From an uncultured Candidatus Rokubacteria bacterium (GTDB lineage Bacteria > Methylomirabilota > Methylomirabilia > Rokubacteriales > DASRDR01), in assembly GCA_963708025.1 (NCBI GenBank), contig CAVPSB010000041.1, positions 1-11,149 on the forward strand: 11,149 nucleotides of DNA, given 5' to 3'. This document shows positions 1 through 11,149 of this stretch, one piece after another (position 1 is the first letter of the stretch; every line of letters begins with the position of its first letter). Both the position numbers and the translations under genes were made by a program. The notes below the pieces were generated by a model that was not told the origin of the DNA, ran no database searches, and saw only the letters and a program-made list of their open reading frames with translations.

Positions 1-171
1 GAGGCTGAACTGGACCGCCACCAGGAAGGGATAGGCGACCAGCCCCAGCAGCAGCGTGACCAGGGGGCCGACCAGGAGGTAGGCGAGCGTCTGCTCGTGG
101 TCCAGCGCCGCCGCCAGGCCGCGGAGCCGCTTCTTCCGCCGGGCCGGAAGGACGAAGGCGCCGTCGCTCAC
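1..171 (-). CDS. Carbohydrate ABC transporter permease, N-terminal part (runs off the window edge)
   Basis: Manual translation from GTG at 171 gives MSDGAFVLPARRKKRLRGLAAALDHEQTLAYLLVGPLVTLLLGLVAYPFLVAVQFSL. The 'YLLVGP...YPF...SL' first TM segment is typical of MalF/UgpA-type permeases. It lies downstream of the solute-binding protein gene, with a GAGGTG SD upstream. An alternative GTG start is at 180. Confidence 0.85.
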   Translation of the reverse strand, partial: MSDGAFVLPARRKKRLRGLAAALDHEQTLAYLLVGPLVTLLLGLVAYPFLVAVQFSL

Positions 172-206
172 CCTAGCCACCTCGAGCCGCGGCTGCGCCA
201 ACATCC

Positions 207-305
207 GGCCCCCCCCCCCCCCCGCCAGAGGCCGAAGGCCGTCCAATCGGTGGGCGAGGGGGGCCAAAGGCCGAGGGCCGTCGAAGGATCGGGGTGGAGG
301 GAGGT
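207..305. repeat. REP-like GC-rich intergenic element
   Basis: GGCCCCCC (207-214) can pair with GGGGGGCC (258-265). There is an internal direct repeat GGCCGARGGCCGTC at about 230-243 and 269-282, and a C15 run at 209-223. Confidence 0.45.
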
Positions 306-315
306 CCCGAAAATC

Positions 316-1671
316 TCAGCCGAGCCGCTTCTGGGCGATCTGCTTGTATTCCTTCTGGGCCCACTTGACGGCGTCGATGGGCTTCATCTGACCGGTGGCG
401 GCCTTGGCGAACATGTTGACGAGCACGAACTTGTTCACGGCCTCGGCCGCCGCCGGCGTGGGCGGTCCGGCGTAGCCGGCCAGGCGGTTGAGCTTGTTCA
501 GCTCGCGGAAGATCTTGAGCTTCGGGTCGTCCGGCCACACGTCCTCCTTGTCGAACCCGCCGAAGGGCGGGATGAAGTAGGACTGGCCGGCCTTGGTCCA
601 CCGGGAGGAAGCTCCGGTCGTGCCACGCGCGCAGGAACGCGAGCTGGCCCTCGCGGTTCTTGCTGGCGGCGAAGCCGGCCCACAGGTTGATGTTGTAGTG
701 CCCGAACCGGCCGGCCGGCCCCGTCGGCCAGTTCGCGTGGTCCATGTTGTCGATGAGCGTCTTCTTGGCCGGGTCGGTCGGCGCGCCGTGCGGGCCGCCA
801 GGTAGATGGTGTTCACGTTGACGGTGGCCGAGACCTTGCCGGCCAGGAACGCCTGGTTGTTGTCGGGGTCGAGCCAGGCGGTGACGCCCGGGACCATGTA
901 CTTGTACATCTCGACGTACCACTCGACCGCGCGGAGCGTCTCCGCCGAGTTGATGGCCACCGTCTTGCCGTCCGCCTCGAACTCCTTGCCCCCGAACGCC
1001 CACAGTACCGGGTAGTTCGTGGAGCGGCCGTCCCCGGAGGCGTGGCCGAGCGTCATCCCGACCGGCGTGCCCTTGGCGTGGAGCTTCCGGGCCGCGGCCA
1101 GGAGCTCGTCGAAGGTGTCCGGGAACCGCTCGACCCCGGCCGCCTTGAACATGTCGGTCCGGTAGTTCCAGGCCGCCGGCGCCTGGCCGATCATCAGCGC
1201 CTTCCACCGGCCCTTGACCACGCAGGCCTGCTGGGCGACGTCGAACCAGCCGCCGTAGGTCTTGCCGACCTCGGCGGCGAGGTCGGTGACGTCGATCAGC
1301 TTGTCGGCGTAGAGATAGGCGTCGAAGTCGCGGACGAGGGCCAGGTCCGCGCCCTGACCGCTGCCGACGATGGCCGCCACCTTGGCGACGTGCTGCTCGC
1401 CGGCGAAGCGCTCGACCTTGACTTCCATGCCGGTGTCCTTCGACATCGACGCGGCGAGGTCGTCGAGCATCTTGTTCGTCTCCGGCACGTACCAGTCGCT
1501 GGTGACGATCGTGAGCTTCGTTCCCTTGAGCGCGCCCTGGGCCCGCGCGGGCCGCGGGCGCGCGGCCAGGACGGCGCCGGCGCCGCCGAGGGCGGCGGTG
1601 CCGGCCAGGAACTGGCGGCGGGTGATCCGCCGAGCGCGGGGCGGGCGGGGAGACGCGAGATCCTGTGTCAT
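316..1671 (-). CDS. ABC transporter sugar/solute-binding protein with Tat signal (apparent frameshifts near 780 and 600)
   Basis: N-terminal RRITRRQFL, hydrophobic stretch and ARA cleavage site. Family-1 SBP motifs include YRTDMF..AG, PDTFDEL and WLDPDNNQAFLAGK. The segment DPAKKTLIDNMDHANWPTGPAG...FLRAWHD is in another frame. SD GGAGGG at 1681-1686. Confidence 0.9.
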   Translation of the reverse strand: MTQDLASPRPPRARRITRRQFLAGTAALGGAGAVLAARPRPARAQGALKGTKLTIVTSDWYVPETNKMLDDLAASMSKDTGMEVKVERFAGEQHVAKVAAIVGSGQGADLALVRDFDAYLYADKLIDVTDLAAEVGKTYGGWFDVAQQACVVKGRWKALMIGQAPAAWNYRTDMFKAAGVERFPDTFDELLAAARKLHAKGTPVGMTLGHASGDGRSTNYPVLWAFGGKEFEADGKTVAINSAETLRAVEWYVEMYKYMVPGVTAWLDPDNNQAFLAGKVSATVNVNTIYLAARTARRPTRPRRRSSTTWTTRTGRRGRPAGSGTTTSTCGPASPPARTARASSRSCARGTTGASSRWTKAGQSYFIPPFGGFDKEDVWPDDPKLKIFRELNKLNRLAGYAGPPTPAAAEAVNKFVLVNMFAKAATGQMKPIDAVKWAQKEYKQIAQKRLG

Positions 1672-1746
1672 GGCGGCATGCCCTCCACTGCGCGGCCGCG
1701 CGCAGCCTGGAATCGATGAAGTCCGGCTCGCCGGGTAGTGGGGCCT

Positions 1747-1776
1747 ACGATATCGAACCCGCCGCCGGGCTGTCGA
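1747..1776 (-). promoter_or_regulatory. Possible sigma70-type promoter for the ABC transporter genes
   Basis: TCGACA (1776-1771), 18 bp spacer, TATCGT (1752-1747) on the minus strand in the enolase-SBP intergenic region. Confidence 0.35.
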
Positions 1777-1783
1777 GGGCTGG

Positions 1784-2904
1784 TCAGCGCGCGTACGTCG
1801 CGATCGCGTCCGGGTTCAGGGTCACCCCCAGCCCCGGCCCCGTCGGGATCGGGAGCATGCCGTCGGCGTCGAGCCGGAACGGCGGGGTGACGCAGCTCCT
1901 CGATGTAGGGCGACGGCGTCAGGTACTCGACGTAGCGCGCGACCGGCAGCGCGGCGGTCAGGTGCAGGTCGGCGGCCAGGCCGACGGCGGTGTTCCAGCC
2001 GTGCGGCACCAGCAGGACGTTGTGGTCGTAGGCCATCCAGCCGATGCGCCGGGCCTCGGTCAGGCCGCCGCACTTGGTCAGTCGGGCTGGATGATGTCGA
2101 CGGCGCGCTGCGGTCGATCCAGGGCTGGAAGCTCTGCCGGCGCGTCAGCACCTCGCCGGTGGCGATCGGCACCGGCGAGTGCCGCCGCAGCTCGATGAAG
2201 CCTTCGAGGTCGTCGGGCGGCAGCGCCTCCTCGAACCAGATGATGTCGTAGTCGGCGAGCATCTTCGCCGTCTCGAGCGCCCAGGCCGACGCCGTGCGGC
2301 CAGAACTGCTCGCTGCCGCCGGCGTCGACCATCAGCTCGACGTCGGCGCCGACCGTCTCGCGGGCCGTGCGGATCAGCAGCTCGTCGAGCTTGCGGCTGA
2401 CGCGGCCGAACGGCCGCCAGCCCATCTTGATCGCCTTGAAGCCGCGGGCGATCTGCCGCTGCAGCTTCTCGCGCAGCACCGGCGGTTCGTCGAACAGGAT
2501 CGAGCCGTAGGGCTTGATGCGGTCGCGGTAGTTGCCGCCGAGCAGCCGCGAGACCGGCTGGCCGAGGCCTTGCCGATCAGGTCCCACAGGGCGATGTCGA
2601 TGCCGCTGATGGCGTGCTCGACCGCGCCGCCGCGGCCCTGCCAGAAGGTGAGCTGCCGCAGCTTCTCGCTGACGCGCTCGGGCTCGTACGGCCGGTCTCG
2701 CCGATCAGCATCGGCCGGAGCAGGGTGAGCGACGGCCTCGACCAGCGGCTGGCTGGTGAAGCAGCTGCCGATGCCGGTGAGGCCCTCGTCGGTGCGGACC
2801 TCGACGAGGTGTTGTATCTGCTCGTTGGGATCGGTGCCGCCGGGCCAGCCGGTGTCGTGGGTGGCGCCGCGGAGGGGGATGGTGCTGACGTCGGTGATCT
2901 TCAT
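1784..2904 (-). CDS. Mandelate racemase/muconate lactonizing enzyme family protein (enolase superfamily, probable acid-sugar dehydratase), frameshifted
   Basis: Stitched across frames: MKITDV..., LVEVRTDEGLTGIG, AISGIDIALWD, GFKAIKMGW, LMVDAG, WFEEAL, PIATGE, DIIQPD, PHGWNTAVGLAADLHL, IPTGPGLGVTLNPDAIATYAR*. Metal ligands D/E/E are present. The ATG overlaps the upstream TGA (ATGA). Confidence 0.9.
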
Positions 2905-3320
2905 GACGGGAGCCCCCAGCTCCGGACCGCGCGCGGAAGGATGCGGAACATGACCCGGTCGGCCGGCAGTGCCCGCCCCGCCCACCGCCGCTCCAGGTCG
3001 GATGGTTCTTCTTCCAGGAACCGCTCGACGAGCGCCCGGCGCTCGGCCGAGTCGGCCAGGAGCTCGGCCCGGCCCTGGACGGTGACACCCCGGATGTCGG
3101 CTCAGACCGCCTCGGCCACGACGCAGCAGCGCGGATCGCGCTGGAGGTTCCGCACCTTCGCCAGCCCGGCCACGCTGATCATGGCGAGCGCGTCGGCGCC
3201 GGCGAGGAACCACATCGGCGTCGCCAGCGGCGCGCCGTCGGGCTGGAGGGTGGCCAGCACGACGACCTGCCGGTCGGCGAGGAAGCGCTGGATCCGCGTG
3301 TCGGAGAGCTGCTCGGGCAT
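2901..3320 (-). CDS. Pyridoxamine 5'-phosphate oxidase-like (split beta-barrel FMN/F420-binding) protein with one in-frame TGA at 3102-3104
   Basis: MPEQLSDTRIQRFLADRQVVVLATLQPDGAPLATPMWF...AKVRNLQRDPRCCVVAEAV*ADIRGVTVQGRAELL...RVMFRILPRAVRSWGLPS*. The LAT..PDG.P, KVRNL..DPR and V.V.GRA motifs continue in frame across the stop. Confidence 0.8.
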
Positions 3321-3335
3321 GTTGATTGGGACCTC

Positions 3336-3381
3336 CCTCCCACCCCCAGCCCCCCTCCCCCACCCACCGGGGGGAGGGGGA
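3336..3381. repeat. REP-like hairpin (CCCCCTCCCCC...GGGGGAGGGGG)
   Basis: Perfect 11-bp stem 3351-3361/3370-3380, preceded by a C-rich tract, between two co-oriented genes. There is no U-tract, so it is not a canonical terminator. Confidence 0.55.
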
Positions 3382-3400
3382 GCCGGAGAAGCGCCACCTC

Positions 3401-4407
3401 TCAGTACCATTTGCTTGTTGACCACGTTGGGCAGCGGCTCGCCGGCCGCGAAGCGGCGGACGTTGTCGAGCAGGACGCCGAGGTGCCGCTCGGCGATGCG
3501 CGGCGAGGCGCCGGCGACGTGCGGCGTGATGATCACGTTCTCCATCTTCCACAGCGGATGATCGGCCGGCAGCGGCTCCGTCTCGAAGACGTCGAGGCCG
3601 GCGCCCGGCGATCTCGCCGGCCTGGAGCGCCGCGGTCAGGTCGGCCAGGTCGACGATCGCGCCGCGGCCGATGTTGATGAGGTAGGCCGTCCGCTTCATC
3701 TGCCGGAACTGCGCCCGGCGGAAGAGCTTGCCGGTCTCCGGCGTGTGCGGCGCCGCGATGACGACGAAGTCGCTGGCGCCCAGCAGCTCGGGCAGGCGCT
3801 CCAGCGTCCAGAGCGCGGCCACGCCGTCCGGCGCCCGGCGTCTGGACCGGGTCGACGGCCAGGACGCGCATGCCGAAGGCGAGTCCGCGCCGGGCGACCT
3901 CGGCACCGATGCGGCCGAGGCCGACGACGCCGAGCGTCTAGTCGGCCAGGTGCAGGTGGGCCCGGTCGATCGCGCTGACCACGCCGGGCCCGGCGGCGAA
4001 GGTGGAGCGGGCGGCCTCGCCGCCGACCGGCGTCCCAGCGTGCCGCGCGATCTGGCTGGCGGATGTAGCGGTGGAGGTTCCGGGCGAAGCAGAGGATGTA
4101 GCCGAAGACGTGGTCGGCGATGACGTCCGAGAACAGGCCGCGCATGTTGGTCAGCGACGCAGGGGTGCGCGACCAGCTCCGGGAAGACGTAGTGCTCGAG
4201 GCTGGCGGTCGGCGCCTGGACCCAGCGGAGCCGGCGTGCGGCGGCCAGCAGCGGCGGCGTGAGCTTGCCGAAGAAGGCGTCGGCGTCGGCGATCTCGCGG
4301 ACCGCCGCCGCCTCGTCGGCGGCGTTGACGACCGCCATCGATCCGGCCGCCTCGCGGATCTTCGTGAGCCGGGCGGCCTCGACCGGCGGATGGATGACGA
4401 GCTTCAT
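3401..4407 (-). CDS. D-isomer-specific 2-hydroxyacid dehydrogenase (NAD(P)-binding), frameshifted
   Basis: Stitched motifs: LRWVQAPTAS, TNMRGLFSDVIADHVFGYILCFARNL, TLGVVGLGRIG (Rossmann), SDFVVIAAPHTPET, YLINIGRGAIVD, GLDVFETEPL, NVIITPHVAG. In-frame TAG at 3938-3940. SD AGGAGG at 4413-4418. Confidence 0.92.
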
Positions 4408-4431
4408 GGGCGCCTCCTGTGCCGAGGCGTC

Positions 4432-4440
4432 ATTCTATCA
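4432..4440 (-). promoter_or_regulatory. Extended -10 element (TGnTAGAAT) for the dehydrogenase operon
   Basis: The minus strand reads TGATAGAAT about 14 bp upstream of the AGGAGG SD. Confidence 0.5.
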
Positions 4441-4444
4441 GCGA

Positions 4445-4558
4445 ACCAATGTACACTGGGCCGCTGAAACAGAGGAGTCGTGGAGGCGGTGCCAACTCCT
4501 CGGCTCGGTCACGGGCGACCAAGGTACACTGAGCCGCTGAAACCCCGAGTCGCGGAGG
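4445..4558 (+). repeat. Imperfect ~42-bp direct repeat upstream of the dehydratase; each copy has a TACACT -10-like hexamer and a GGAGG
   Basis: ACCAATGTACACTGGGCCGCTGAAACAGAGGAGTCGTGGAGG (4445-4486) versus ACCAAGGTACACTGAGCCGCTGAAACCCCGAGTCGCGGAGG (4518-4558). Confidence 0.8.
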
Positions 4559-4567
4559 AGCGTGAGC

Positions 4568-6539
<1,972 letters not shown>

Positions 6540-6543
<4 letters not shown>

Positions 6544-7325
6544 GCGCGGAGGAACGGGAGGATCGCCGCGGCGAACTCGGCGGGCATCTGGTCAACCATC
6601 GCCACCGTGCCGCCCGGGATCGGCAGGCTGCGGCTCCCGGCGATGGCGCGGGCCAGCGGCTCCATCCGCGGGTACGAGAAGGGATCGCTCGTCCCGCAGA
6701 CCACGAGGGTGGGACAGCGGACCAGCCCGACCTTCGTCTCCATGCGGTAGACGCTGCAGGCCCGGTGTCCCTCTTCCGCCTTCTCGCCGGCCCGGAGGGC
6801 GTCGATGACGAAGCGGGTCAGGAGATCCGGCCGGCCCTTCGGATAGAAGCCGAGCCGCCGCTGCCACAGCTCGGTCAGGTGACGGCCGTCCTCGTGCACC
6901 GTGACCTCGTCGATCGGCGGCCGGTCCCGGCGCCGCTCCCGGTCCTCGGCGTCGATGTACGGGCTGTTGGAGAGCACGAGCCGCTCCACCCGATCGGGAT
7001 GGCTGGCAGCCAGCTCGACCCCGATGACCGCCCCGGTGTGGTGGCCGACCACCGCCGCCCGCCCGATGCCGAGGGCGTCGAGCAGGTCAACCGCGCCCCG
7101 GGCGTAGTCCTCGATGGCGCACGTCTGGGCGGGCCTGTAGGAGTCGCCGTAGCCGATCGTGTCCATGGCGACGACCCGGCGGGCGCCGGCCAGGAGCGGG
7201 ATGACGTCGCGGTACTCGTCCGAGGACCGGGGAGTCTGGTGCAGCAGCAGGACCGGTGGCCCGCTTCCCGCGGCCCGGTAGTGAATCGGGCCATGCGGCG
7301 TGTCGGCGAAGGCCCGGGTCACCAT
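6540..7325 (-). CDS. Alpha/beta hydrolase fold protein (non-canonical, GHHTG elbow)
   Basis: [68 protein letters not shown]. The ATG at 7325 is preferred over 7376 because of the promoter position. Confidence 0.9.
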
Positions 7326-7334
7326 CGGGCTCCG

Positions 7335-7363
7335 ATTCTGCGATCTCCCGGCCGACGTGTCAA
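7335..7363 (-). promoter_or_regulatory. Sigma70-type promoter of the hydrolase gene (near-leaderless transcript)
   Basis: TTGACA (7363-7358), 17 bp spacer, CAGAAT (7340-7335). The ATG is 9 bp downstream and there is no SD. Confidence 0.6.
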
Positions 7364-7473
7364 CGCGGCCGCCCATGCCTCAGCCGAAGATCCCCGTCCC
7401 GACCGGCCCCCGGCTCGTGTAGCCTGGTGCCCGGAGCCCCGCGCCGCCGCCGGCCCCCAAGGAGGGTGTACAG

Positions 7474-7545
7474 GTGGGTCTTTCCACGTACTGGCCCCTG
7501 GACAAGGACGTCACGTTCCTCAACCACGGAACCTACTGGGGCTAA
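7474..7545 (+). pseudogene. 5' fragment of a class-V PLP aminotransferase (isopenicillin-N-epimerase/EgtE-like), interrupted
   Basis: SD AAGGAGG (7459-7465) and GTG give [26 protein letters not shown]....FLNHG is the characteristic N-terminus of this family, and the resemblance stops right after NHGTY. Confidence 0.7.
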
Positions 7546-7587
7546 CTGCCTGTAATGACGAGAGTCGCGTCCATCTTGTGCAGAAGC

Positions 7588-7617
7588 AGGTTGCACCAGG
7601 GTTGCACTAGGTTGTGA
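7588..7617 (+). repeat. Tandem short direct repeats, putative integrase arm-type binding sites
   Basis: AGGTTGCACC (7588-7597), AGGGTTGCACT (7598-7608) and AGGTTGTGA (7609-7617), between the junction and the integrase stop codon. Confidence 0.55.
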
Positions 7618-7630
7618 GATCCGGAGCCCT

Positions 7631-8068
7631 TCAGCGAGAAGGATCCGGGCGTGTCTGGGCGACAAGCGCGTTCACCGCCTGCCGATCGGATCCGGGGAGG
7701 TAGTGCACGTACACCTTCGCCGTGATGAGGATGTTGGCGTGGCCCAGTTGCCGGCTGACGTAGTAGAGGTCCTTCCCGGCGGCAAACAGGAGTGTGGCAT
7801 ACGTGTGCCTGAGCTGGTGCACCGTGCGGTAGCGAAGACCCGACAGCTTCATCATCGGCTGCCAGACGTTGGTGAGAAAGCTTTGGTAGGAGTAGGGCCG
7901 GAGGGCGGTGCGTCCGGGGAACACATACTTGTTGGGAGACCGGCCAGCGACAAGGCTCTTCAGCTCTTGCTCCTTCAAGTAGTCCCGCAAGAGTGCGGCC
8001 AGCTCGTCGCTGATTTCGACGGTGCGCTCGCTCGTCGGAGTCTTCGTCTTGAAAACGATCTGGGGTGC
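7631..8068 (-). pseudogene. Tyrosine recombinase/phage integrase, C-terminal catalytic fragment (5' truncated)
   Basis: The frame reads ...KTKTPTSERTVEISDELAALLRDY...YVFPG...VHQLRHTYATLL...VSRQLGHANILITAKVYVH. The K, HxxR, H and Y catalytic residues are present. An in-frame TGA lies upstream at about 8069-8071, and the first catalytic Arg and N-terminal domains are missing. Confidence 0.9.
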
Positions 8069-8069
8069 T

Positions 8070-9352
8070 CATGGAGGGCCCGCGGACGGTTGGCGGTGGG
8101 CTCGCGGCGCCTCAGACACCAACAACGGGCGGGTGCTGCGTGCTCCGCACCCACTTGGCGGATCGACCCGGCCGGCGGGAGGCGAGAAGAAGCCCTGGCC
8201 GCGAGTCAACCCCGGGACCGCCGACGTCAGCGTGGCCGGGTGCACACCGCCGGCCGGAGCTTACGCGGCCCGGCGGGTGTAGCGATGATGGAGGCCGCCG
8301 ACCAGAGGCGTCTCGACGATGCGACCCCGGTCGGGACGCTCCACCGGTCTGGGCTCCGGGGCGTCCTTCGCGAGGGAGAGGTGGGTCCGGGCACTGTGGT
8401 AGTAGAGGAGGTAGTCACGCAGCAGGCGACGCAGGTGGGCGTCGTTCAGCACCACCACGTGGTCGAGGCACTCGCGGCGCAGGGTCCCGATGAGACGTTC
8501 GACATAGGGATTCTGCCACGGGGACCGCGGGGCGATCTTGACCTCGTGGATCCCCAGGGATCGAACCCGGCTCGAGAACACTGCCCCGTACACCGCATCG
8601 CGGTCGCGCAGCAGGTATCGGGGCGCGGTGTCCCACGGGAACGCCTCGACGAGTTGCTGGGCCGTCCACTGGGCGGTCGGGGTGTCGGTCACGTTGACGT
8701 GGACGACGCGTCGCCGGTCGTGCGCCAGGACGACGAAGACGAACAAGACCTTGAAGAGCACCGTGGGCACGACGAAGAAGTCCACAGAGACCAGCGTCCC
8801 GACGTGGTTGGCGAGGAAGGTCCGCCAGGTCTGCGACGGAGGGCGTTCGACGGCGGACCAGGTACTTCGAGACCGTCGCCTGGGAGATCTCGAGGCCGAG
8901 CTTCCGGAGCTCCCCGTGAATGCGCGGCGCGCCCCAGAGGGGGTTGGCCTCGGCCATTCGTCGGATGAGCGCTCGGACCTCCGGGGCGACGGCCGGGCGG
9001 CCGGGCCCGCGCCGCCGGCTCTTCCAGGTCCAGAAGAGCTTGAAGCCAGTCCGCTGCCACCGGATCACCGTCTCGGGTTGGACGATGGCGACGGCCTCCG
9101 CCCAGCCGTGCCACAGGCGGGAGAGCAGGACCCAGAACAGCCGGTCGGAGGGTCGCAGGCGTGGACGCGGCGTGCTGCGCTGGAGGACGGCCAGCTGATG
9201 CCGCAGCGCGAGGTTCTCGAGCACCAAGGCGCGCTGGGTCCGGATCCCGCGGAGGAGACTGGTGAGGACGAGGGTGATCATGGCGGTCATCATCGAGTAG
9301 GCCGGCCGGAAGTTCAACGCTGACGAGGCGGATGGAGTAAGTGGAAGGCACA
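8070..9352 (-). mobile_element. Insertion sequence 1 (IS481/IS3-like rve type)
   Basis: Transposase plus a putative left end TGTGCCTTCCACTTACTCCATCC starting at 9352 on the minus strand. The right boundary is approximate, set where integrase similarity stops, and no clear right inverted repeat is visible. Confidence 0.65.
8261..9281 (-). CDS. rve/integrase-core (DDE) transposase, one frameshift near 8840
   Basis: LENLALRHQLAVLQR, IVQPETVIRW, PGRP, NPLWGAPRIHGELRKLG, then DFFVVPT (D), YLLRDRD (D), SPWQNPYVERLIGTLRRECLD (E), GGLHHRY. Alternative starts are at 9290 and 9293. Confidence 0.92.
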
Positions 9353-9353
9353 G

Positions 9354-9398
9354 GCGGCGTGGCTCGTCGAGGAGTTGCTCGAGAAGGGTATGAGGTGA
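9354..9398 (+). pseudogene. Possible 3' remnant of a small gene cut by IS1
   Basis: AAWLVEELLEKGMR* begins at the IS end, and its TGA overlaps the next GTG (GTGA coupling). Confidence 0.3.
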
Positions 9399-9616
9399 AG
9401 TCACCGACGGCCGAGAGGCTTGCGAAAGAGGTGGCCCAGTTGAGCCGCGGGGAAGAGGCGCCGGCCCATTCCATGGTGCGCGAACGGCTCGACGAGCGGG
9501 AGAATCCAACATCGTTTGCGGCGGTGAGGGCAGAGATCGACCAGTCGCTCGCAGATTCACTGGTTGCTCTGTTCACCGACGACATGGAAATGGTCTCGGA
9601 GTCTGAAGCTGGCTGA
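9395..9616 (+). CDS. Small acidic hypothetical protein (73 aa)
   Basis: MKSPTAERLAKEVAQLSRG...DDMEMVSESEAG*. It has a GTGA overlap with the upstream remnant and is followed immediately by repeat 1. Confidence 0.5.
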   Translation: MKSPTAERLAKEVAQLSRGEEAPAHSMVRERLDERENPTSFAAVRAEIDQSLADSLVALFTDDMEMVSESEAG

Positions 9617-9619
9617 AAA

Positions 9620-9655
9620 ACGACGAAGCGCCCGGCACCGTGACGGAGGTGCTGG
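9620..9655 (+). repeat. Intergenic structured repeat, copy 1
   Basis: ACGACGAAGCGCCCGGCACC... with stem CCGGCACC (9632-9639)/GGTGCTGG (9648-9655). Confidence 0.7.
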
Positions 9656-9676
9656 AGTTGAAGGGGGGACAAGCCG

Positions 9677-9838
9677 ATGGGAAAGAAGACGTTCACGTGC
9701 GCGAAATGCACCAAGCAATTTGAAGGGGATGAGGAGCTCTTCAAGTCGAAGGCGGACTCGGAAGGCATTGCGGAGTCCCTGATTCTGTGCAGCGACTGTC
9801 GGCGAAAGGCCCAAGAAGAGCGAACCACGAAGGTGTAA
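9677..9838 (+). CDS. Small zinc-ribbon protein (53 aa, CxxC...CxxC)
   Basis: Not in the ORF track. MGKKTFTCAKCTKQFEGDEELFKSKADSEGIAESLILCSDCRRKAQEERTTKV*, with a purine-rich SD AAGGGGGG upstream. Confidence 0.75.
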   Translation: MGKKTFTCAKCTKQFEGDEELFKSKADSEGIAESLILCSDCRRKAQEERTTKV

Positions 9839-9840
9839 GG

Positions 9841-9894
9841 ACGTAGCAGCGCCCGGCGCGGTGCTGGTGACGGAGTTGCTGGCGTAGTGCCGGG
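9841..9894 (+). repeat. Intergenic structured repeat, copy 2
   Basis: ACGTAGCAGCGCCCGGCGCGGTGC... with a long G-U-rich stem 9852-9871/9875-9894. Confidence 0.8.
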
Positions 9895-9908
9895 AAAAGG
9901 GGAAGACC

Positions 9909-10058
9909 ATGGCCAAGATCGTTCAGATTGTCGCCAACGACAATGCGCTGTATGCGCTCGATGATCGCGGCAACATCTACCAGACTCTTACGGGAGCCGA
10001 CTGGACGAAGCTGCCAAGCCCACCCGTGGCAGGCGGCGAGATCAAGCCCAAGAAGTAA
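9909..10058 (+). CDS. Small hypothetical protein (49 aa)
   Basis: Not in the ORF track. MAKIVQIVANDNALYALDDRGNIYQTLTGADWTKLPSPPVAGGEIKPKK*, with SD AAGGGGA upstream. The pattern resembles a single beta-meander or propeller blade. Confidence 0.7.
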   Translation: MAKIVQIVANDNALYALDDRGNIYQTLTGADWTKLPSPPVAGGEIKPKK

Positions 10059-10061
10059 CGA

Positions 10062-10103
10062 ACGTAGCAGCGTCCGGCGCGGTGCCATGAACACCGCCCG
10101 GGC
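10062..10103 (+). repeat. Intergenic structured repeat, copy 3
   Basis: ACGTAGCAGCGTCCGGCGCGGTGC is 23/24 identical to copy 2. Stem CCGGCGCGGTG/CACCGCCCGG with one bulge. Confidence 0.8.
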
Positions 10104-10141
10104 AGTGGCCCACCAACCCTCAGCCTGGGAGGCGATGGAGG

Positions 10142-10257
10142 ATGAGCGACCCTATTCTACTCGAAGCCCGGCCCCTGGCCGCAAGCACCAGCGTCAAGTA
10201 CGCCCGGGCCTTGCGGCGGTTCGACGAGTACCGGGCGGCGCTGCCGGCCCCTGAGCC
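10142..10257 (+). pseudogene. 5' fragment of a gene interrupted by IS2, resembling a tyrosine-recombinase N-terminal (core-binding) helix
   Basis: MSDPILLEARPLAASTSVKYARALRRFDEYRAALPAPE, then read-through into the IS end to TAG at 10288. GGAGG at 10128-10132. L..ST...Y...L..F..Y pattern. Confidence 0.45.
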
Positions 10258-11149
10258 CGTAGTGTCCGAATATTCGGCCGAGCTGTAGACACCCCGGCGG
10301 TGAGTGGTCGGGCAGGGTAGAATCGGCGAATGATTGCCGAGCTCTCCCCTTTGCGGGTACTGCTCGTGACGCTCGCCGGATGGATCAATCGCCACCAACA
10401 GCACGTGATCGAGTATTTGCTCGAGGAGAACCGGGTCTTGAAGGAGCAGGTGAAGGGACGACGCGTCCGGCTCACCGACGACCAGCGCCGACGCCTCGCG
10501 GCGAAGGGGCGCCGACTCGGCCGATGGGTCTTAAGGCAGGTCGCGACGATCGTGACCCCCGACACGATCTTGCGATGGCACCGGCAGCTGATCGCCCGGA
10601 AGTGGACGTTCACACCGAAGCGGCCTGGCCGTCCCGGGACCATGAAGGAGATCTCGTCGCTCATTCTGCGGATGGCCACCGAGAATCCGGGGTGGGGCTA
10701 CACGGGCATCCAGGGGGCGCTAAAAGAACCTGGGCCACAACCGGCCGGACCACGGTCGCCAAGGTCCTGAAAACAAACGGGATCCCGCCCGCGCCGAACC
10801 GCCCATCATCCTGGCGGACGTTCTACGGGCCCACTGGGGGGCGATCGCGGGGGCCGACTTTCTCACCAGCGAGATCTGGACCCCTCGAGGGCTGATCACT
10901 TACTACACCCTCTTCGTGATCGATCTCCGGAGCCGACGGGTGCACGTGGCGGGCTCGACGCCGACCCCGGATGCAGGGTTCATGGCGCAGGCCGCGCGTC
11001 GCCTGACCGATGCGGTCGATGGATTTCTGGCCGGCCATCGGATCCTCATCTGCGACCGGGACGCCCAAGTGGACGGAGGGATTCCGACGCATCGTCCAAG
11101 GCGCGGGTGTGCGGATCGTGCTGGCACCCGTCCAAGCGCCGAATGCCAA
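10258..11149 (+). mobile_element. Insertion sequence 2 (rve type), left end plus partial transposase
   Basis: Putative left end CGTAGTGTCCGAATATTCGG lies 72 bp upstream of the transposase and shares a spaced motif with the IS1 left end. Confidence 0.7.
10330..11149 (+). CDS. rve/integrase-core (DDE) transposase, frameshifted, runs off the window edge
   Basis: IEYLLEENRVLKEQ, IVTPDTILRWHRQL, PGRP, ENPGWGY..IQGAL, PPAP.R...WRTF, AHW..IAGADF, LFVIDLRSRRVHVAG, LICDRD, P.QAPNA. TAGAAT (10318-10323) lies 6 bp before the ATG. Confidence 0.9.

Follow-up and report, generated by a model that had tools for sequence, protein, structure and literature searches.

The stretch of DNA analyzed here (hereafter, the window) is the complete 11,149-bp contig C41 (CAVPSB010000041.1) of an uncultured Candidatus Rokubacteria bacterium, whose assembly (GCA_963708025.1) comprises 8.17 Mb in 49 contigs with 71% guanine-plus-cytosine (GC) content. 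Near its right end, between two insertion sequence (IS) elements labeled IS1 and IS2, four small open reading frames (ORF1–ORF4) lie on the forward strand, and each of the three gaps between them holds one copy of a 24-nt repeat. An earlier reading of the same sequence (hereafter, the original prediction) had proposed a cassette-like array of fixed-size small-protein modules. Our analysis instead gives about an even chance that the repeats are paralogous spacers between the cistrons of one small-gene operon that form RNA stem-loops, in a layout like that of promoter-early stem-loops (PeSLs). The array comprises the following features:

9356–9616, forward strand: ORF1, 5'-truncated, equivalent to residues ~41–125 of the 125-aa protein P0010; GC at codon positions 1, 2, and 3 (GC1, GC2, GC3) of 0.68/0.45/0.72
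9620–9676, forward strand: spacer 1, with repeat copy 1 (9620–9643), a predicted sense-strand hairpin with arms CCGGCACC and GGUGCUGG, and a G-rich Shine-Dalgarno sequence
9677–9838, forward strand: ORF2, 53 aa, CxxC...CxxC zinc-ribbon-like; GC1/2/3 of 0.48/0.43/0.72
9841–9908, forward strand: spacer 2, with copy 2 (9841–9864), a long predicted sense-strand hairpin, and a Shine-Dalgarno sequence
9909–10058, forward strand: ORF3, 49 aa, modeled as a four-stranded, propeller-blade-like beta-meander; member of a small-protein family
10062–10141, forward strand: spacer 3, with copy 3 (10062–10085), a predicted hairpin, and the Shine-Dalgarno-like sequence GGGAGG
10142–10288, forward strand: ORF4, 48 aa as it stands, with its last ~11 codons within the end of IS2

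Three locus-specific repeats

A repeat finder returned a single family of three 24-nt copies that start at 9620, 9841, and 10062, with start-to-start distances of 221 and 221 nt, which reproduces the original prediction. Taking copy 2 as the reference, copy 1 is 75% and copy 3 is 96% identical, the latter corresponding to the 23 of 24 nucleotides that the two had been said to share. The copies begin 3, 2, and 3 nt after the stop codons of different ORFs (9614–9616, 9836–9838, and 10056–10058), and Shine-Dalgarno-like G-rich runs lie upstream of the ATGs at 9677 and 9909, so that both the predicted position 2–3 nt past a stop and the predicted unit of repeat, Shine-Dalgarno sequence, and ORF hold. 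The consensus ACGNNGNAGCGYCCGGCRC matches the window three times (with at most one mismatch) compared to 0.02 ± 0.14 times in 200 shuffles, a test that is circular because the pattern was derived from the same three copies. The same consensus has three matches in the whole assembly, every one at this locus, and an nhmmer search of the genome with a 34-nt repeat profile recovered the three copies at E <= 0.002, with the next match at E = 5.8. The repeats are real, locus-specific, and beyond chance.

Two further points of the original prediction concerned the spread of the motif. A genome-wide dispersed repetitive extragenic palindrome (REP) does not fit, given that the genome holds three copies, all of them here, and longer arrays with variable ORF content emerged neither from the profile search, which gave no fourth copy in the genome, nor from the pattern scans of other genomes. 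Occurrence nowhere else, the outcome that had been named as damaging to the cassette idea, is what the profile, pattern, and blastn searches returned. The comparison set for this poorly known, high-GC phylum of soil and bog comprised 251 genomes (the pattern tally includes the unpublished G226, G064, G038, and G055), in which the single pattern occurred 0–12 times per strand versus 0–11 times for a reversed control pattern. Blastn of the same genomes yielded eight borderline, chance-like matches of 26–40 nt, three of which overlap a repeat and sit within long coding frames. A clustered regularly interspaced short palindromic repeat (CRISPR) array had been discounted from the start, and we agree: the 221-nt period spans coding ORFs, Tandem Repeats Finder (TRF) reported no array in 9300–10300, and Rfam gave no match to the array, CRISPR-DR families included.

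The 221-bp spacing

The two equal intervals are composed differently (57 + 162 + 2 nt in the first unit; 68 + 150 + 3 nt in the second), and a second common block of 19 nt (9640–9658 and 9867–9885; 89% identity) is spaced 227 nt apart, showing that the units are not in rigid register throughout. Variants of the array came from public data: sequence from part of this stretch occurs in 20 sequencing runs, which belong to 15 studies; four of these runs were compared as short Logan contigs, and the array parts that are uncovered in some runs carry no information. Runs X1, X2, and X3 supplied short contigs with 95–100% identity over parts of the array. One X2 contig has an extra G behind 9838 and one X3 contig an extra A behind 9840 (+1 nt each; in both cases a single low-depth contig). 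The ORF3 homolog P0002 carries an N-terminal extension with 17 codons from an in-frame GTG (window 9861) to the ORF3 start, compared to 16 in the window, which would place its spacing at +3 nt. With shifts of +1, +1, and +3 nt in three variants, the period is not conserved.

Likeness between the units is limited to their first 25–45 nt. Aligned in register, the ORF parts show 28% identity versus 26.3 ± 3.8% at other offsets, and the Smith-Waterman score of ORF2 against ORF3 was equaled by 125 of 500 shuffles. Tandem duplication of a whole unit is ruled out, because the ORF parts are unrelated. The original prediction had itself cautioned that equal spacing might reflect chance or an old tandem duplication; the first caveat was well placed and the second falls away. 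The equal spacing looks like a coincidence instead of a constrained unit size, and the eye-catching exact 221-bp period should not be taken as a cassette size.

Sense-strand folding and the operon interpretation

Both strands of each spacer were folded with RNA parameters. Spacer 1 gave −25.0 kcal/mol (z −2.31) on the forward strand and −15.5 kcal/mol (z −0.51) on the reverse strand, spacer 2 gave −32.0 (z −1.90) and −14.8 kcal/mol (z +0.71), and spacer 3 gave −36.1 (z −0.90) and −36.9 kcal/mol (z −0.83). Sense RNA is therefore 9.5 and 17 kcal/mol more stable than antisense RNA in spacers 1 and 2, respectively, where only the sense strand beats shuffles. This difference makes a stem-loop in the RNA of the coding strand more likely than either a palindrome acting as DNA or a bottom-strand site of the attC kind, because G-U-containing RNA stems give strand asymmetry and DNA palindromes do not, and it fits the RNA-level signal that the original prediction had listed as an alternative. 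The conserved CCGGC core forms the 5' stem arm in the predicted hairpin of every spacer. Homology between spacers 1 and 2 extends along most of the two sequences, and the translated leader of P0002 appears to resemble spacer 1 further downstream than the window's own spacer 2 does.

All four ORFs have the codon-position pattern GC1 > GC2 < GC3 (GC3 of 0.72–0.82), whereas overlapping frames on either strand lack it. The operon interpretation also rests on the position of the three repeats 2–3 nt past a stop codon and before a Shine-Dalgarno sequence and start codon, on the strand that carries this coding GC pattern, and on units that are unrelated outside their spacers. Each spacer would consist of the preceding stop codon, 2–3 nt, a conserved ~24-nt box of the ACGTAGCAGCGYCCGGCGCGGTGC type, a GC-rich stem-loop, a Shine-Dalgarno sequence, and the next start codon. 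The stem-loops would act on the mRNA as partial terminators or attenuators, barriers to 3'-exonucleases, or processing sites, and could thereby set the relative expression of successive small cistrons. The operon would belong to a horizontally acquired integrative element that is now riddled with IS elements, and the likeness of the spacers may have arisen by spread or homogenization through recombination between spacers, as in T4-type PeSLs.

Several observations weigh against the operon interpretation. A consensus scan of 9300–10300 found no forward-strand terminator or sigma-70-like promoter (the promoter consensus of this phylum may differ), no U-tract follows the stems in the three spacers, and the spacers have no Rfam match. 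Spacer 3 shows no strand asymmetry, the fold z-scores are modest overall, and both the 3' arms and the loop sizes vary from hairpin to hairpin. P0002 has other codons where the long spacer-2 hairpin has its 3' arm, so that this stem is perhaps not a conserved one. With three copies in all and no homologous locus that is independent and diverged, there is no basis for covariation. Evidence at the RNA level consists of one 163-nt record over 9908–10046 from RNA library X19, which is no proof of transcription because such libraries can hold DNA.

The same observations bear on a doubtful but possible alternative, in which the repeats are functionless relics of a spacer copied by local duplication or gene conversion as small genes were joined, with equal spacing due to chance. 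It would account for the three copies in a single lineage, the 75% identity of copy 1 to copy 2, and a period that is kept neither by close variants (+1, +1, and inferred +3 nt) nor by the second block (227 nt); moreover, GC-rich DNA folds readily, as the z of only −0.9 for spacer 3 illustrates. A relic would not be expected to hold a constant position 2–3 nt past the stop each time, to keep 23 of 24 nucleotides between copies 2 and 3 despite unrelated flanking ORFs, or to favor sense-strand folding in two of three spacers.

The best conserved part of the box is a near-palindrome, GCGCC-C-GGCGC, free of mismatches in copy 2 and with a single mismatch in each of copies 1 and 3. This raises a second alternative, which we consider unlikely, that the box (core GCGCCNGGCGC) is a DNA operator through which an element-encoded regulator acts on every cistron in the manner of a stoperator. 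All copies are in one orientation, intergenic, and beside stop codons, as described for stoperators (PMC3029335), whereas those sites are 13 bp long and number 24–34 per phage genome, compared to three copies of a longer box here. No DNA-binding protein was recognizable among ORF1–4 by Pfam/PHROG-type searches of this 0.9-kb relic, this GC-rich genome contains 63 occurrences of the short core AGCGYCCGGCRC, and the strand-asymmetric folding points to RNA.

A relic of an integrative element

The array is flanked by the following features:

7634–8053, reverse strand: tyrosine recombinase fragment, C-terminal 140 aa (HxxR...H...Y region); Pfam PF00589, E 8.3e-15
8054–9355, reverse strand: IS1, a DDE transposase with a split reading frame; Pfam rve_3, E 1.7e-12, and HTH_32, E 2.5e-8
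10256–11149 (contig end), forward strand: IS2, a different DDE element; Pfam HTH_32; 84–89% identical copies on contig C14

From about position 7400 onward, GC content drops from ~0.73 to 0.59–0.66 (genome 0.71). This drop, the recombinase fragment, and the two IS elements define a mobile-element context, and 9356–10255 is what the IS elements, trimming from both sides, have left of an integrative element, a lower-GC relic of ~0.9 kb. The original prediction of an integrative element with tyrosine-recombinase remnants on both sides stands with regard to acquired DNA and the left-hand fragment (PF00589, low GC); on the right side of the array no recombinase remnant was found, the flank being the DDE element IS2, and DDE IS elements directly border the array. 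The ends of IS1 (8053/8054 and 9355) were fixed by 83–88% identical copies on contigs C44, C18, and C49, and a search for terminal inverted repeats of IS1 recognized none. The IS2 edge at 10256 is backed by five loose ends in run X2. A composite transposon was rejected, because IS1 and IS2 have no DNA similarity.

The N-terminal side of the recombinase fragment was cut by IS1 at 8054. Its best NCBIfam matches are XerA/XerD/XerC-like and run contiguously over residues 8–118 (109 profile positions); integron-integrase models align to residues 75–120 only, with 33.6 and 19.9 bits versus cut-offs of 265 and 435. The integron-specific insertion (IntI extra domain) is absent from the alignment of the surviving part, the C-terminal 140 aa. 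Judged by these profile matches, the fragment is Xer-like. Its related-loci search returned distant integrases only (36–51% identity over short segments), none of them with the motif.

Just past the stop codon of the fragment, 7587–7614 holds 2.7 copies of the 11-nt unit CAGGTTGCAC, which may be candidate arm-type binding sites of an att region. At the start of the GC drop, a short open frame (7475–7546, forward strand) encodes a 24-aa stub that has no Pfam match and that, by motif only, we take to resemble a truncated class-V aminotransferase N-terminus; the element may have inserted at this point. A tRNA search of the window found none.

Relatives of the array and the recombination-site alternatives

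Near-identical cluster members from metagenome contigs, known here through their proteins, number five for ORF2, three for ORF3, and two for ORF1. One 5054-bp metagenome contig encodes homologs of ORF1 (full-length), ORF2, ORF3, and ORF4 with 87–98% identity, including a 47-aa ORF4 that is 98% identical and has the same IS2-derived tail. The metagenome contigs that encode ORF1–ORF3 are 5.0–5.6 kb long. The array is known in near-identical form only. A pair-pattern scan of 185,579 species genomes gave three stretches, none of which is homologous beyond the pattern, and the scan of IMG/VR gave 0 matches. One stretch that satisfied the pair pattern (L019; positions 2001–2221 of a contig from a gammaproteobacterial metagenome-assembled genome) contains an unrelated ~60-nt sequence twice, 209 bp apart.

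The fixed-size cassette array of the original prediction is not upheld: the same ORF1–ORF4 set recurs in one near-identical contig, the spacing varies, and the motif was found nowhere else. A fixed gene order with variable spacing in homologous loci, which had been set out as evidence against cassettes, is thus present, in near-identical loci only. That the repeats are recombination sites of a cassette store run by a tyrosine recombinase (integron-like, or with PeSL-like exchange that excises units) is very unlikely. In its favor, every repeat comes after a stop codon and is capable of folding, and the tyrosine recombinase fragment is directed away from the array, just as intI is directed away from its cassettes. 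Between fragment and array lies IS1, leaving their original adjacency open to doubt, and the fragment itself falls far short of the integron-integrase cut-off (33.6 bits versus 265) and lacks the integron insertion. The attC site works as a folded bottom strand, whereas here the bottom strand folds worse, and none of the spacers has the RYYYAAC/GTTRRRY core as defined in PMC5027507. Inspection of the three spacers, which bears out the earlier claim that attC boxes are lacking, gave as GTT candidates only GTTGAAG in spacer 1 (last base not Y) and GTTGCTG in spacer 2, with no RYYYAAC partner.

Elsewhere in the phylum, genes of the ORF1 and ORF3 families stand alone, which would fit capture, whereas the related 5054-bp contig has the same four ORFs (a weak test, with near-identical relatives only) and no second array was found in the genome, the 185,579 species genomes, or IMG/VR. 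Two low-depth contigs could be read as unit exchange. The X3 contig (depth 2.73) joins 9868 to 10090 and so omits exactly 221 nt, and a single X1 contig matches from 9632 onward only, preceded by 255 unlike letters. At the X3 joint, however, the shorter side measures only 24 nt, and the joint falls 4 nt outside the identical block; it may be a variant of copy 3 instead of a deletion.

We hold it to be most improbable that the boxes are sites of non-integron gene capture, in which the Xer-like recombinase or box-to-box exchange would move ~220-bp single-gene units. Such capture, if true, would explain how unrelated small genes came to stand in one array, each with the same box behind it, and why one metagenome contig is seemingly short of one 221-bp unit.

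The small proteins

The original prediction treated the first gene as a whole, acidic 73-aa ORF. On comparison with its homologs, ORF1 is a 125-aa gene that IS1, by cutting it at 9355, has reduced to its 3' two-thirds: the 125-aa P0010 belongs to its 90% cluster, and the tblastn alignment begins at residue 41–47, exactly at the IS1 edge. The family is small (P0012, 48% identity; P0014, 35%; P0016, 31%). Genome G076 has a member alone, with no array, between response-regulator-like and aminotransferase-like frames (neighbors assigned by eye from translated motifs). A related-loci search of genome and viral contigs with the ORF1-family alignment (A2) gave no confirmed relative.

Domain matches of ORF2 are weak (Pfam zf_Tbcl, E 0.0024, below cut-off; best PHROG, E 5.7e-4), and one weak relative was found in 250 other phylum genomes. 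Its related-loci search gave one spurious 18-residue match in genome contigs and five matches in metagenome contigs, which cover residues 36–53 only, in a search that missed the known near-identical contigs. For both ORF2 and ORF3, viral contigs returned nothing but a 9-residue pattern match, and tblastn against 50,697 phage records returned no match.

ORF3 has relatives with 30–54% identity in 38 of 250 other phylum genomes at E <= 0.01 (36 of 248 without the unpublished G038 and G064), and the family conserves the core KFIQICASQNDLFALDEEGNIYQYNF...W.KL (alignment A3; loci L042–L046). Five family loci were examined among the 38 genomes; their open frames are 89–218 aa with the start unconfirmed, and none has a repeat-like sequence after the stop. 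The AlphaFold model of ORF3 (predicted local distance difference test score, pLDDT, of 81.5; strands at 4–9, 14–18, and 23–26) is a single four-stranded beta-meander like one propeller blade, and its sequence matches are weak (Tectonin/DUF6242). Foldseek gave no match to the model at E <= 0.001, and the top non-significant rows include oligomeric propellers such as Ph1500. The protein might assemble into a homo-oligomeric propeller.

The native ORF4 gene was probably cut by IS2 at about 10255, given that IS2 homology starts at 10256, with short matches to 10252–10283 in several related genomes. A longer ORF4 homolog was found nowhere among 5.8 billion proteins. The idea that ORF4 is a recombinase N-terminus was rejected, because Pfam, PHROG, and NCBIfam gave no support and no longer homolog exists in that search. 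In run X2, a 242-nt contig (record 19) is ~90% identical over ORF4 and its leader (10100–10233), and the 104 letters at its start do not resemble spacer 3 and ORF3; ORF4 may stand in another context in that sample.

Host contig

Contig C17 (1–9477) is ~93% identical to window positions 1–9553, with 123 gaps in 7.7 kb that are mainly 1-nt gaps in homopolymer runs, and the left junction of IS1 is not alike in the two contigs. Either indel errors are frequent in at least one of the two contigs, or the bin combines two strains (contamination 8.18%). C17 was rejected as a paralogous second copy, because a ~93% identical, indel-rich duplicate represents a redundant assembly or a strain variant. Elsewhere in the window (regions 4562–7610, forward strand, and 2374–4407, reverse strand), a dihydroxy-acid/6-phosphogluconate dehydratase has its N-terminal Pfam domain in one ORF and its C-terminal Pfam domain in another, and one 677-aa ORF holds both a 2-hydroxyacid dehydrogenase domain and an MR_MLE domain. 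These split and merged domains suggest frameshifts or spurious long frames in a 71% GC contig.

Comparison with known systems

REPs and bacterial interspersed mosaic elements (BIMEs) are GC-rich intercistronic stem-loops that follow stop codons in enterobacterial operons and are thought to stabilize the upstream mRNA; REPs are dispersed genome-wide in hundreds of copies. The spacers share with them a GC-rich stem-loop placed after stops, whereas their motif is confined to one locus.

The closest likeness in layout is to the PeSLs of T4-type phages (Arbiol et al. 2010, PMC2839356), described there as repeated, element-specific intergenic cassettes between small ORFs of unknown function in accessory regions. 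The order of stop codon, motif, stem-loop, Shine-Dalgarno sequence, and start codon between small ORFans given in that description is also the order found here. PeSLs, as reported, carry a sigma-70 −35/−10 promoter and an AT-rich tract, occur ~50 times per genome, and have demonstrated terminator and promoter activity as well as recombination into mini-circles. In contrast, the present spacers are GC-rich, number three, and have 0 promoter-like sites in 9300–10300, and we infer their function from sequence.

Stoperators of Cluster A mycobacteriophages, described as 13-bp asymmetric repressor sites with 24–34 copies per genome (PMC3029335; see also PMC9283540), are likewise short, mostly intergenic sites that keep one orientation relative to transcription within a high-GC mobile genome, whereas here a ~24-nt box with a palindromic core occurs in three copies and no repressor gene was found in the surviving 0.9 kb. 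The start-associated sequence (SAS) and extended SAS (ESAS) repeats of Cluster K mycobacteriophages are also conserved elements, located before the starts of unrelated non-structural genes; ESAS has, in addition, imperfect inverted repeats whose spacer varies, and its function is given as unknown (PMC3203893). As described there, SAS lies 3–7 bp before the start codon and contains the ribosome-binding site, whereas the present box abuts the preceding stop, 33–56 nt before the start. The attC sites of integrons (PMC5027507) resemble the repeats as imperfect hairpin-forming sites right after ORFs, next to a tyrosine recombinase gene of opposite direction. They differ in having the RYYYAAC/GTTRRRY boxes, an IntI-type integrase, and variable cassette content, none of which is seen here, and the bottom strand of the present spacers folds more poorly.

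The array is a relic of 0.9 kb with the repeat in three copies, and without diverged relatives it offers limited lessons beyond its own locus. The locus is a lineage-specific case of a known kind, the intergenic modules that recur among the small accessory genes of mobile elements, and we propose a function for it. If the operon interpretation is correct, this would be another mobile element that tunes or shuffles small accessory genes with a repeated intercistronic module of its own, a kind of module so far documented mainly in phages of well-studied hosts, namely T4-type phages and mycobacteriophages.

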